Shown here in pieces: positions 24,617 to 43,420 of a DNA stretch of 64,000 nucleotides (position 1 is its first letter; each line of letters starts with the position of its first letter). Under the pieces are notes generated by a model. The model ran no database searches. It worked only from the letters and a program-made list of their open reading frames with translations, and was not told where the DNA came from. The position numbers and the translations under genes are program-made. Location of the stretch: the NCBI GenBank assembly GCA_963770895.1, contig CAVYRF010000002.1, positions 372,354 through 436,353 on the forward strand. The letters are read 5' to 3'. The stretch is from an uncultured Acidobacteriota bacterium. Its GTDB lineage: Bacteria; Acidobacteriota; Thermoanaerobaculia; Multivoradales; UBA5704.

Positions 24617-27600
24617 GAAGATCCGCCAGGCGCCCCGCGCAAGGGCGACGAAGACGATTCCCAGCCGCTGCGTTTCGGCCCGCGAGTTTCAATCCACGCC
24701 CCCCGCAGGAGGCGACGGCCGGCAGTGGCGCCACTACGTCCACGGCAAAGTTTCAATCCACGCCCCCGCACAGGGGGCGACCACGCCGGTGGATTCCGGT
24801 CGCGCTCGCGCCAGTTGGTTTCAATCGACGCCCCCCGCGCAGGGGGCGACGCCTTGAGGCGCGACCATGCGTCGGTCGTGTCCTGTTTCAAGCCACGCCC
24901 CCGCGCAGGGGGCGACCACCCAGGCGCGCCGAATGTTCCGCCGGTGACAAAGTTTCAAGCCACGCCCCCGCGCAGGGGGCGACCCGCTGTTCACCAAGAT
25001 TGGCTGTCCCGGCGAGAGTTTCAATCCACGCCCCCGCGCAGGGGGCGACGAGGCGATCGACTGCCCTACGTGCGACGGCAGCGGGTTTCAATCCACGCCC
25101 CCGCGCAGGGGGCGACTCGAGGTGCGCCGGGTCGGCGAACACGTTGAACTTGTTTCAATCCACGCCGCCGCGCAGGGGGCGACTCGACGTAGCGCAACGA
25201 AAGGAGATAGATCATGAGTTTCAATCCACGCCCCCGCGCAGGGGGCGACAGTCTCTTGAGCAGGCACTGACTGCGCTTCGCGAGTTTCAATCCACGCCCC
25301 CGCGCAGGGGGCGACCTGTGTTGAGGGTGGATAGGCCAGCATTGGCTAGTTTCAATCCACGCCCCCGCGCAGGGGGCGACAAGCATTTTCTGCCACTGCT
25401 GTAGTGTCACCACTGTTTCAATCCACGCCCCCGCGCAGGGGGCGACGCGCGCAGCACCTTGCGCTTGCGGGCGAACAGACTGTTTCACTCCACGCCCCCG
25501 CGCAGGGGGCGACGAAAGTCCGTCCAAGTCCTCAGTCGCGACGATCGGGTTTCAATCCACGCCCCCGCGCAGGGGGCGACGCGCACCTTCGCCCCGGAGG
25601 TGGAGGCGATAAGGCGTTTCAATCCACGCCCCCGCGCAAGGGGGCGACCCCATGAGCCCGAAGGGTTTGATAGGCCCAACAAGTTTCAATCCACGCCCCC
25701 GCGCAGGGGGCGACAGTGGCCGGAGGTGGGCTGCTGGGACAGCGAGTGTTTCAATCCACGCCCCCGCGCAGGGGGCGACTACCGGGCGGCTCCGCTGAGA
25801 ACGGCAGTTGCGGGTTTCAATCCACGCCCCCGCGCAGGGGGCGACTTGCCGGCGGACTCGTTGATCGAGGCGCCCTGCTGTTTCAATCCACGCCCCCGCG
25901 CAGGGGGCGACTCGCTGGATGCCGGCGGGATCTCGATGGTCACCGGTTTCAATCCACGCCCCCGCGCAGGGGGCGACGCGAGATCTTCGCGGCCACCCGC
26001 GAGGCGTTTTTGTTTCAATCCACGCCCCCGCGCAGGGGGCGACAGAGTGCTCGTGCCCGATCTTCCAAGCTCATCTCGTTTCAATCCACGCCCCCGCGCA
26101 GGGGGCGACAAGTATTCAATGCGTCGATCCGCCGAGCGAAAGAGTTTCAATCCACGCCCCCGCGCAGGGGGCGACGGCGAAAACACAACTCCTTTTTCGG
26201 CATACCCCAGGTTTCAATCCACGCCCCCGCGCAGGGGGCGACCCGATCCGCTCTCTACTATCGTCGTCGGTCTTCTGTTTCAATCCACGCCCCCGCGCAG
26301 GGGGCGACGCGGACGCCGAAAGCGACACGGACGCGGCCACAAAGTTTCAATCCACGCCCCCGCGCAGGGGGCGACGTCAGGTGTTGATTCTGCAGGCAAC
26401 GCTCCCGAAGTTTCAATCCACGCCCCCGCGCAGGGGGCGACCAGCATCATCGTGATGATGGATGCCGTTATCAAGTTTCAATCCACGCCCCCGCGCAGGG
26501 GGCGACGCGATGCAGGCCGCGCAGAAGACCGGCAGCCTGATGTTTCAATCCACGCCCCCGCGCAGGGGGCGACTCCGATTCCACGTGCCCTGTTCCTTTA
26601 CGACCTTGTTTCAATCCACGCCCCCGCGCAGGGGGCGACATCCATGGGAAGCGGGGACGAAGTGGCAGATCCAGTTTCAATCCACGCCCCCGCGCAGGGG
26701 GCGACCGGACCCAGCCGTGACCACCTCCGGCCAGGAACTGGTTTCAATCCACGCCCCCGCGCAGGGGGCGACAGGATTGCCCACGCGATGTGCGCGGCGT
26801 TCAGGAAGTTTCAATCCACGCCCCCGCGCAGGGGGCGACCTAGCCGGTAGCATTTCTCATTCGCGCTGTAAGGGTTTCAATCCACGCCCCCGCGCAGGGG
26901 GCGACGTTATCAGCGACCGCCTTGAGCCGATCGGCCGTCAGTTTCAATCCACGCCCCCGCGCAGGGGGCGACATTTTCATTGGGCACCTCCAAGCAGGAG
27001 TGACCAGTTTCAATCCACGCCCCCGCGCAGGGGGCGACCAAAGACATCGGGGAGGGTCCGGTAGAGGTGCGAGTTTCAATCCACGCCCCCGCGCAGGGGG
27101 CGACGGTGTGTTGCTCCTGTGTCTGTGCTGCCTGGTTGGTTTCAATCCACGCCCCCGCGCAGGGGGCGACTGACGCCAGTCCCTTCGATCAATCCTTGGT
27201 AGAAGTTTCAATCCACGCCCCCGCGCAGGGGGCGACGCGGTGTCGACGCCGTTCCACTTCACCCCGTTGTTGTTTCAATCCACGCCCCCGCGCAGGGGGC
27301 GACCCAGGTGGTGGCGGCTGTGGACCTAAAGAGAAAAGTTTCAATCCACGCCCCCGCGCAGGGGGCGACTCGTGCAGGGTGCTGGTCATAGCGCGGATCT
27401 CCCGGTTTCAATCCACGCCCCCGCGCAGGGGGCGACTGCTGGCGCAGCGCATTTTGCTGTACGTCGAGGAGTTTCAATCCACGCCCCCGCGCAGGGGGCG
27501 ACCTTACCGTCACGCCGTCTCTAGAGCTTATTACGAGTTTCAATCCACGCCCCCGCGCAGGGGGCGACCCCGACGGCTACGCAGTGACGCAGACAGACAT

Positions 27601-29099
27601 GGTTTCAATCCACGCCCCCGCGCAGGGGGCGACGCTGGCGAGCGCCCCCTGGACGGTGGCATACGATCCGTTTCAATCCACGCCCCCGCGCAGGGGGCGA
27701 CCTTATTGGCCTCGCTCGGATTCGCAAGCGTGTTGAGTTTCAATCCACGCCCCCGCGCAGGGGGCGACGCCTGATTTTATGCAAGGCACCCTCAGCGCCA
27801 CGGGTTTCAATCCACGCCCCCGCGCAGGGGGCGACCTTCGCCCACCGGGCCATTGGGTCGTGAAGCATAAGTTTCAATCCACGCCCCCGCGCAGGGGGCG
27901 ACGGTAGCTAGAGCCAACGCCGATACCGGAGACAGGTTTCAATCCACGCCCCCGCGCAGGGGGCGACCTGGAACCCGATCGCCAAACGCGGCGGCTGGTA
28001 CGGGTTTCAATCCACGCCCCCGCGCAGGGGGCGACCGTAGCCCGTACACCACTCCTTCGTGAAGCTGTCGTTTCAATCCACGCCCCCGCGCAGGGGGCGA
28101 CACCAACGTCGGCTGCACCATGCTGGTGAAGGACATGTTTCAATCCACGCCCCCGCGCAGGGGGCGACATCGGTCTGGGTGTCGGAGATGACCTCCGCGA
28201 CCTGGTTTCAATCCACGCCCCCGCGCAGGGGGCGACTTTCGAGCGTCGCAAATCTCACCTCTTCCCCGATGTTTCAATCCACGCCCCCGCGCAGGGGGCG
28301 ACCAGGCACCAGGTACCCGAGTCTTAGCAAGCTCGAATGGTTTCAATCCACGCCCCCGCGCAGGGGGCGACGCTGCCGAATCGAGGTGATCTAACCATGT
28401 CTCTTGTTTCAATCCACGCCCCCGCGCAGGGGGCGACCCCCGGTCAGCACACAGGGGAAACACGAATGGATGTTTCAATCCACGCCCCCGCGCAGGGGGC
28501 GACTTGTAGCCCCCGTTGACGCGGTGCGTAATCTCGCGTTTCAATCCACGCCCCCGCGCAGGGGGCGACACGGGGCTGCTCCAGGGGCTCGCCGGCACCA
28601 CGAGTTTCAATCCACGCCCCCGCGCAGGGGGCGACATGGCCGGCCTAGATGTGCTGACGAAGACGATGCAGTTTCAATCCACGCCCCCGCGCAGGGGGCG
28701 ACTACCGGCAACGCGATGGGCGCGAAGCCGGCAAAGTTTCAATCCACGCCCCCGCGCAGGGGGCGACCACACTCGGAGACTGAGTGTGTTCCCGTCTACT
28801 CGTTTCAATCCACGCCCCCGCGCAGGGGGCGACCGGCTTCGGAATAATAGCCACTGCCGGGAACCCAGTTTCAATCCACGCCCCCGCGCAGGGGGCGACT
28901 TCGCCGAGCAGATCATCGATCAAAAGCTCCTGGTTTCAATCCACGCCCCCGCGCAGGGGGCGACTTGACGTTGACGACACCGAGGGTATCGAGCGACTTG
29001 TTTCAATCCACGCCCCCGCGCAGGGGGCGACCGAATGATCAATGACGTACGCGCCGGCCGCATGGTTGTTTCAATCCACGCCCCCGCGCAGGGGGCGAC
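24617..29099 (-). CRISPR. CRISPR array 1 (type I-C repeats), ~66 repeats, leader at the high-coordinate end
   Basis: The 32-bp repeat GTTTCAATCCACGCCCCCGCGCAGGGGGCGAC is regularly spaced with 33-38 bp unique spacers. Its reverse complement GTCGCCCCCTGCGCGGGGGCGTGGATTGAAAC is I-C type. The first copies at the low-coordinate end are degenerate, from 24617 to ~24720. The last repeat is at 29068-29099. Confidence 0.97.
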
Positions 29100-43210: not shown

Positions 43211-43420
43211 TGCGGCTCCCGAAGTATCTGATCCTTATGGGGTAGAAGTCCAGACTCCGCGAACCTGACAGCCAGCGCCCCGAATCGGCTGACCTATGCC
43301 AGCCAAGGACGCACAAAGCCTTGCGAGCTAGTACTTTATGGGCTCCGCGAAGCTCTGCTGGGAGGAGTTGATAGCTGGCGGTTCGCGGCCGCCAATTGTC
43401 GTGAGGCGATTCGCGGACCA
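43211..43420 (-). promoter_or_regulatory. CRISPR leader of array 2 (homologous to the leader of array 1)
   Basis: TGCGGCTCCCGAAGTATCTGATCCTTA...GGCTCCGCGAAGCTCTGCTGGGAGGAGTTG aligns with 29100..29290 (TGCGGCTCCTGAAGTATCTGATTCTTA...GGCTCCGCGAACCTCTGCTGGAGGGAGTTG). Confidence 0.65.

Follow-up and report, generated by a model that had tools for sequence, protein, structure and literature searches.

The 64,000-nucleotide window analysed here (contig CAVYRF010000002.1 of an uncultured Acidobacteriota bacterium, forward-strand positions 372,354 to 436,353) holds an ordinary, complete type I-C CRISPR-Cas locus (CRISPR, short palindromic repeats that are clustered and regularly interspaced), together with a second leader-array unit on the 5' side of cas3. 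The explanation we favour, with a probability of roughly 78%, is that a single complete cas operon of the I-C (Dvulg) type serves two co-oriented leader-array units. The second of them, referred to below as leader 2 and array 2, is probably functional, as judged from its conserved features. The locus is slightly unusual yet tidy, and implies neither a new kind of system nor a new mechanism.

Organization of the type I-C locus

All relevant parts of the locus lie on the minus strand between 24620 and 43423. Read in this direction, leader 2 and array 2 come first, followed by the operon cas3-cas5c-cas8c-cas7-cas4-cas1-cas2 (37159→29293), leader 1 and array 1. Each of the seven cas genes matched an NCBIfam I-C model above its cut-off, with scores in bits (cut-off in brackets) of 123 (85) for Cas5c, 251 (219) for Csd1, 312 (182) for Csd2, 494 (385) for Cas1c, 117 (65) for Cas4, 66 (24.5) for Cas2 and 63 (43) for the HD part of Cas3. 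The gene set is that of type I-C, comprised of seven genes in one operon without cas6, and none of the other open reading frames (ORFs) in the operon interior has a family match. The starts of Cas8c and Cas1 were taken from gene calls on a Logan contig with an identical Cas2.

The orientation of the arrays is indicated by four independent observations, which place both leaders on the high-coordinate side. On the minus strand the repeat reads GTCGCC...ATTGAAAC, decayed repeats occur only at the low-coordinate ends of both arrays, sub-threshold matches to Rfam CRISPR-DR9 are found only on the minus strand, and relatives have the same cas2-leader-array order. The first-pass annotation had described a type I-C locus, with both arrays in the orientation of the cas operon and a second unit 5' of cas3 that points at this gene. 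The subtype is borne out by the matches of the seven cas genes, the shared orientation by the placement of all parts on the minus strand, and the position of the second unit by the mapped coordinates.

Homology of the two leaders

Alignment of 29292-29100 with 43420-43211 gave 141 identical positions out of 188 (75%), and a score of 104, compared with 3.2±2.1 (maximum 12) for 300 shuffled sequences. The proposal that two leaders of about 75% identity occupy the high-coordinate ends is thus confirmed, the score being far above that of the shuffles. The homology does not end with the leader but also covers the last 22 nt of cas2 (29314-29293 versus 43423-43402), and stops there. In a local alignment, 20 of 24 nt are identical over the final codons; the stub at leader 2 reads DGPRIAS, compared with DGPLIA and a stop in Cas2, the stop codon TGA being changed to TCA. 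Because the similarity runs into cas2, array 2 would be a copy of the junction between the cas2 3' end, leader and array. Beyond the stub, 177 nt of unrelated sequence separate it from cphA.

Distances among leaders were drawn from a multiple alignment, as pairwise global identities are inflated by gaps and uninformative. In the alignment of 17 leaders, leaders 1 and 2 are nearest neighbours, with 68% identity to each other and at most 58% to any other leader, which favours an origin within the lineage.

Conserved leader motifs

Sets of 14 and then 17 leaders were aligned, and columns with at least 80% agreement among the 15 other leaders were considered conserved. The motif GGTTCGCG is present at -55/-57 in all 14 leaders of the smaller set and at -144±2 in 13 of them. 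The inverse motif CGCGAACC is located at -178±3 in 14 of 14, with outliers at -168 and -174, just past the cas2 stop codon. In half of the set (7/14), a AATCAGNNNCTTS-like site occurs at -23, resembling WATCAANNNNTTR, the consensus of integration host factor (IHF). Both window leaders carry the conserved motifs at fixed distances from repeat 1 and fit the family phasing within 1 bp; over its 64 kb the window contains GGTTCGCGG six times, and five of these occurrences are in the two leaders. The phasing spans phyla, being present in I-C leaders of metagenome-assembled genomes (MAGs) assigned to Acidobacteriota, Ignavibacteriaceae, WS1 and Desulfarculales (L003-L036).

Differences between leaders 1 and 2 are found in 4 of the 48 family-conserved columns and in 56 of the 150 others (Fisher p=6e-5), and each of the two leaders matches the family consensus at 41 of the 48 conserved columns. 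Their concentration in free columns points to purifying selection on both leaders and not to decay of leader 2, which looks functional by its sequence.

The distal motif pair was also observed to form an inverted repeat of 9-12 nt directly after the cas2 stop codon. Since its sites are invariant and do not covary, a DNA-binding site is predicted here, and not an RNA stem.

Arrays, repeats and spacers

Arrays were delimited by fuzzy scanning for the repeat and by edit-distance parsing, and their ends were located with an nhmmer repeat profile. The final secure repeat of array 1 is at 24716-24686, and a remnant at ~24649-24620, which the profile places near 24645, is marginal (E=0.36). In array 2, 80 near-perfect repeats extend down to 37892, followed by eight decayed trailer repeats below 37856; the final secure repeat is at 37515-37484, and the remnant at 37409-37382 is marginal (E=0.05). 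The ATG of cas3 (37159) is 324 nt from this secure repeat and 221 nt from the probable remnant. The series of 80 consecutive near-identical repeats suggests that repeat 1 of array 2 continued to be copied.

The first-pass annotation had estimated ~87 spacers in array 2 and ~150 overall, in agreement with the exact 87 and the 154 (67 + 87) counted here. Its view that the array-2 trailer reaches the cas3 region also stands, but the array end it gave, 37891, was wrong, and the trailer comes ~500 nt closer to the gene. The "very active" adaptation it had read from these numbers does not follow from a total of 154, as lengths of 54-88 repeats are usual for single arrays in the clade (88 in L032, 84 in L014, 54 in L023 and at least 57 in L030).

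Repeat variants of the two arrays differ at two positions, consistently across 65 copies in array 1 and 80 copies in array 2. Both have the form expected of type I-C, with a length of ~32 nt, a stable hairpin, a conserved 3' ATTGAAAC and a predicted 11-nt 5' handle. Each variant folds into a 7-bp stem capped by a loop of 5 nt, and the tail of 11 nt has AUUGAAAC at its end; the hairpin energies are -15.4 and -15.1 kcal/mol, and both differences are within the loop. Given the same hairpin and differences limited to the loop, one Cas5c should process both precursors of CRISPR RNA (pre-crRNAs). The stem of both window arrays is CCCCC/GGGGG, which again ties the arrays together. The closest relatives (L003, L005, L030-L036) use the repeat GTCGCCTCCCGCGCGGAGGCGTGGATTGAAAC, with a compensatory CCTCC/GGAGG stem.

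No spacer occurs twice among the 154, and arrays 1 and 2 have none in common. Spacer length is 32-37 nt in both arrays, with a mode of 34 nt, and spacer G+C content is 60-62%, compared with 69.6% in the window. Spacers 2 (43077-43111) and 40 (40571-40604) of array 2 correspond to the same protospacer in the same register and match at 31 of 32 positions, which suggests a later re-acquisition into array 2 from a variant of the same element. Exact matches between spacers and the window itself are of 14 nt at most, which is the chance level, and no spacer in common with either window array was found in related loci. In the decaying trailer of array 2, spacer 82 (37778-37823) is 46 nt long and includes, where spacer and repeat meet, a tandem duplication of 12 nt (GTACAGAGTCG x2), which is a slippage scar.

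Related loci

A search with Cas8c revealed 27 related loci in GTDB, the best with 84% identity and the closest belonging to MAGs of Thermoanaerobaculia/Acidobacteriota. Two more loci were obtained in a metagenome scan with the leader pattern, both with the canonical cas2-leader-array order, and five among close Cas2 relatives. For 20 related loci at least 2.3 kb upstream of cas3 could be compared, and an array upstream of cas3 was present in none of them. Each array found in relatives comes after cas2, and the canonical I-C layout described in the first-pass annotation, a single array after cas2, holds in 20 of 20 related loci. The upstream array is lineage-specific. According to a survey of CRISPR loci, I-C arrays are typically located close after the cas locus, and those preceding it tend to lie far off and in reverse orientation (PMC12814883).

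One related acidobacterial MAG (MFD09368.bin.3.159) contains two separate I-C modules (L005 and L006) on different contigs, with closely similar leaders and their own arrays, showing that module duplication does occur in the clade. In a short-read Logan contig of the same locus (L028, 405-1000), array 1 has collapsed, and between leader and trailer a repeat and spacer 61 are all that is left of it. This contig was considered as a strain with a new first spacer and rejected, as the spacer in question is spacer 61 of array 1 in a collapsed assembly; array lengths in short-read contigs are accordingly unreliable. Exact-protein look-ups with Cas3 and CphA returned no records.

Transcription towards cas3

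Scans for a sigma-70-type promoter consensus upstream of cas3 and for an intrinsic-terminator consensus between array 2 and cas3 detected none. Rfam models gave nothing on the leaders and the cas3 upstream region beyond sub-threshold CRISPR-DR9. Pfam matches were also missing for ORFs overlapping the intergenic and decayed-repeat regions, which were for this reason treated as spurious. Read by eye, leaders 1 and 2 and that of L003 share a conserved but weak match (8/12), TGGACT-N18-GATACT, and -10-like elements (GATAAT/TGATAG) lie within 20 nt of the cas3 ATG in the window, L002 and L003. An alignable block was not found among the cas3 upstream regions of relatives.

The geometry would permit transcripts of array 2 to run on into cas3, an unsupported possibility. 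Long untranslated CRISPR arrays are Rho substrates, with termination by Rho documented, and boxA/Nus antitermination of CRISPR arrays has also been described (PMC7665894). As to a boxA in the leader, CCTTAAGAA resembles GCTCTTTAACAA only loosely. Considering Rho, the relatives that have no upstream array and the -10-like elements near the ATG, little read-through is expected, and the ~220 nt next to cas3 most likely contain a separate promoter for this gene. Array 2 would be more than memory if read-through of its decayed trailer, followed by Cas5c cleavage at the last repeats, freed cas3 mRNA, which we find very improbable; if true, the supply of Cas3 would be tied to the array-2 leader, a coupling of crRNA and Cas3 that other I-C loci lack. 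Another model, in which a cr-like RNA from the trailer acts on the cas3 promoter (bioRxiv 10.1101/2023.03.03.530964), was dropped because trailer spacers have no notable complementarity to 37160-37380.

Interpretation and alternative explanations

In the arrangement we favour, array 2 would be old and paralogous to the canonical cas2-leader-array junction, as its anatomy suggests. It could have been formed by segmental duplication of the cas2 3' end with leader and repeats, or be what is left of a second tandem I-C module that lost its cas genes. In both arrays, repeat 1 would be a possible insertion point for one Cas1-Cas2-Cas4 integrase, since both leaders keep the phased GGTTCGCG motif, its inverse and the IHF-like site. 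One Cas5c would process both pre-crRNAs for one Cascade/Cas3. We infer competence of both arrays in adaptation and processing from this conservation. It is common for a cas locus to have several arrays (PMC12814883).

Several observations weigh against this arrangement. The middle motif of leader 2 has a mismatch (GCTTCGCG), and its IHF-like site starts with G instead of W. No sigma-70-type promoter consensus was detected by the scan in either leader, the E. coli consensus used being possibly unsuited to Acidobacteria. The look-up with exact Cas2, through short Logan contigs, gave no strain with differing leader-proximal spacers; an identical Cas2 is present in three samples (ERR11571140, ERR12036781 and SRR28060768). 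Protospacers were found neither for both arrays among GenBank phages (distant mode), nor for the whole locus among PLSDB plasmids, where the sole matches are at the level of the repeat, to D. vulgaris I-C arrays, nor for three spacers in IMG/VR. The protospacer-adjacent motif expected for type I-C is 5'-TTC. Finally, with 25% divergence between the leaders, one of them may come from an unsampled foreign donor.

The cas2 3' remnant at the edge of leader 2, the 25% divergence of the leaders, a trailer more decayed than that of array 1 (eight degenerate repeats) and the lack of a comparable upstream array in all 20 relatives are also compatible with array 2 being the fossil of a second I-C module without cas genes, maybe transcribed and processed, no longer acquiring spacers and slowly decaying. 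This is unlikely, as each leader keeps 41 of the 48 family-conserved positions with the differences in free columns (p=6e-5), the 80 leader-proximal repeats are essentially identical, and spacer 2 would be a variant of spacer 40 that was acquired later. An assembly artefact, in which one long array was split or duplicated onto both sides of the operon, has to be considered for a metagenome-assembled contig of 5.83 Mb, all the more since short-read assemblies collapse the array at the same locus (L028) and an independent contig across the cphA/leader-2 junction was not found. We regard it as extremely unlikely, because the repeat variants consistently differ at two loop positions over 65 and 80 copies, the leaders are only 75% identical, the flanks are unique (cphA versus cas2, and cas3 versus MNT/HepT), the decayed trailers are separate, and none of the 154 spacers is common to both arrays.

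It is very unlikely that array 2 is mainly regulatory, with pre-crRNA reading into cas3 and Cas5c cleavage releasing the cas3 mRNA. Array 2 is indeed co-oriented with cas3, no gene lies in the 324 nt (secure repeat) or 221 nt (probable remnant) between them, and the intrinsic-terminator consensus is absent before cas3, whereas a terminator-like hairpin follows array 1. On the other hand, an untranslated transcript of 5.8 kb would be a prime Rho substrate (PMC7665894), a local promoter is expected because 20 of 20 relatives manage cas3 expression with no array in front of the gene, the -10-like elements of the window, L002 and L003 are no more than 20 nt away from the start codon, and the consensus scan detected no promoters.

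Comparison with other CRISPR-Cas systems

The window locus resembles archetypal type I-C loci (Dvulg; Desulfovibrio (Nitratidesulfovibrio) vulgaris megaplasmid, Bacillus halodurans, Legionella, Myxococcus) in its seven genes in the same order and without cas6, in a 32-nt repeat that has a hairpin of 7 bp, a tail of 11 nt and ATTGAAAC at its end, and in a leader and array directly after cas2. It differs from them in the co-oriented second leader-array unit directly upstream of cas3. One cas set with two co-oriented arrays, related leaders and near-identical repeats is also the pattern of CRISPR-I/CRISPR-II in the type I-E systems of E. coli/Salmonella, and in Salmonella I-E the cas genes and the array adjacent to cas2 can be transcribed together (PMC7665894). 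Unlike I-E, the subtype in the window is I-C, with processing by Cas5c and Cas4-assisted adaptation, and array 2 abuts cas3 instead of being kilobases off, and retains the cas2 3' remnant.

Arrays closely flank the cas genes on both sides also in type I-F (Pseudomonas, Pectobacterium) and in I-B/I-D, where multiple arrays are the norm (PMC12814883; bioRxiv 10.64898/2026.04.27.721218). In contrast to the divergent arrays of P. aeruginosa I-F, those in the window are co-directional and the upstream one points into cas3. Phased motifs up to ~180 bp upstream of repeat 1 and a putative IHF site near the repeat are similar to the leader architecture with IHF and upstream motifs in adaptation of types I-E, I-F and I-C (Nuñez 2016; Santiago-Frangos 2021, as summarised in bioRxiv 10.1101/2023.05.26.542337). 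Citing Santiago-Frangos 2021, the same preprint attributes to I-C leaders several IHF sites, along with subtype-specific motifs at 100-200 bp upstream.

Feature coordinates and flanking genes

Table 1. Features of the two-array type I-C locus; positions are those of the window.
Feature	Position	Strand	Basis or remark
array 1: 68 repeats (GTCGCCCCCTGCGCGGGGGCGTGGATTGAAAC), 67 spacers	24620..29099	-	secure down to 24686
leader 1	29100..29292	-	75% identical to leader 2
leader 1 IHF-like AATCAGATACTTC	29122-29110	-	leader alignment
leader 1 proximal motif GGTTCGCGG (-55)	29154-29146	-	motif scan
leader 1 middle motif GGTTCGCGG (-144)	29243-29235	-	motif scan
leader 1 distal inverted motif CCGCGAACC (-178)	29278-29270	-	motif scan
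cas2	29293..29583	-	NCBIfam model
cas1c, 343 aa	29590..30621	-	NCBIfam model
cas4	30618..31328	-	NCBIfam model
cas7/csd2	31333..32283	-	NCBIfam model
cas8c/csd1, 589 aa	32276..34045	-	NCBIfam; length from gene call on contig with identical Cas2
cas5c	34045..34770	-	NCBIfam model
cas3 (HD nuclease plus helicase)	34868..37159	-	NCBIfam; N-terminus aligned from residue 1 in relatives
array-2 remnant to cas3 ATG, 221 nt, presumed cas3 promoter/5' untranslated region	37160..37380	-	no recognisable gene
array 2: 88 repeats (GTCGCCCCCCGCACGGGGGCGTGGATTGAAAC), 87 spacers	37381..43210	-	secure down to 37484
leader 2	43211..43401	-	75% identical to leader 1; keeps family motifs
leader 2 IHF-consensus-like GATCAGATACTTC (-23..-11)	43221..43233	-	leader alignment
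leader 2 proximal motif GGTTCGCGG (-55)	43257..43265	-	motif scan
leader 2 middle motif GCTTCGCG (-143)	43346..43353	-	motif scan; one mismatch
leader 2 distal inverted motif CCGCGAACC (-177)	43380..43388	-	motif scan
cas2 3'-end remnant, distal edge of leader 2	43402..43423	-	local alignment of leader regions
terminator-like hairpin and T-rich tail, downstream of array-1 trailer	24466..24481	-	terminator scan

Directly past the array-1 trailer, a toxin-antitoxin pair of MNT (Polbeta nucleotidyltransferase)/HepT-like genes is located at 23538-24546 (-), and MNT/HepT genes likewise follow cas2 and the array in L028. Next to it is an ORF of 637 aa (21504-23417, -) without a Pfam match, which is conserved at the same length downstream of the HepT gene in L028. 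On the other side, upstream of leader 2, a cyanophycin cluster (43601-49531) is comprised of cphA (cyanophycin synthetase, 46528-43601, -), an S51 cyanophycinase gene (47934-46525, -) and a divergent Mur-ligase-type gene (47666-49531, +).

Implications

Two arrays would give the host two sets of well-expressed leader-proximal spacers, a speculative benefit that is plausible in light of a 121-spacer I-C array in which ~4% of spacers gave measurable interference (bioRxiv 10.64898/2026.07.09.737519). Transcription of array 2 toward cas3 could possibly add to cas3 expression. The locus provides a clean natural example of a CRISPR locus gaining a second array, with the cas2 stub marking the breakpoint. 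How the two leaders have diverged, with conserved motif columns kept and drift elsewhere, reveals the positions on which selection acts in leaders of this I-C clade, and the phased GGTTCGCG triplet at -55/-144/-178 offers testable candidate docking sites for the I-C integrase or a host factor.

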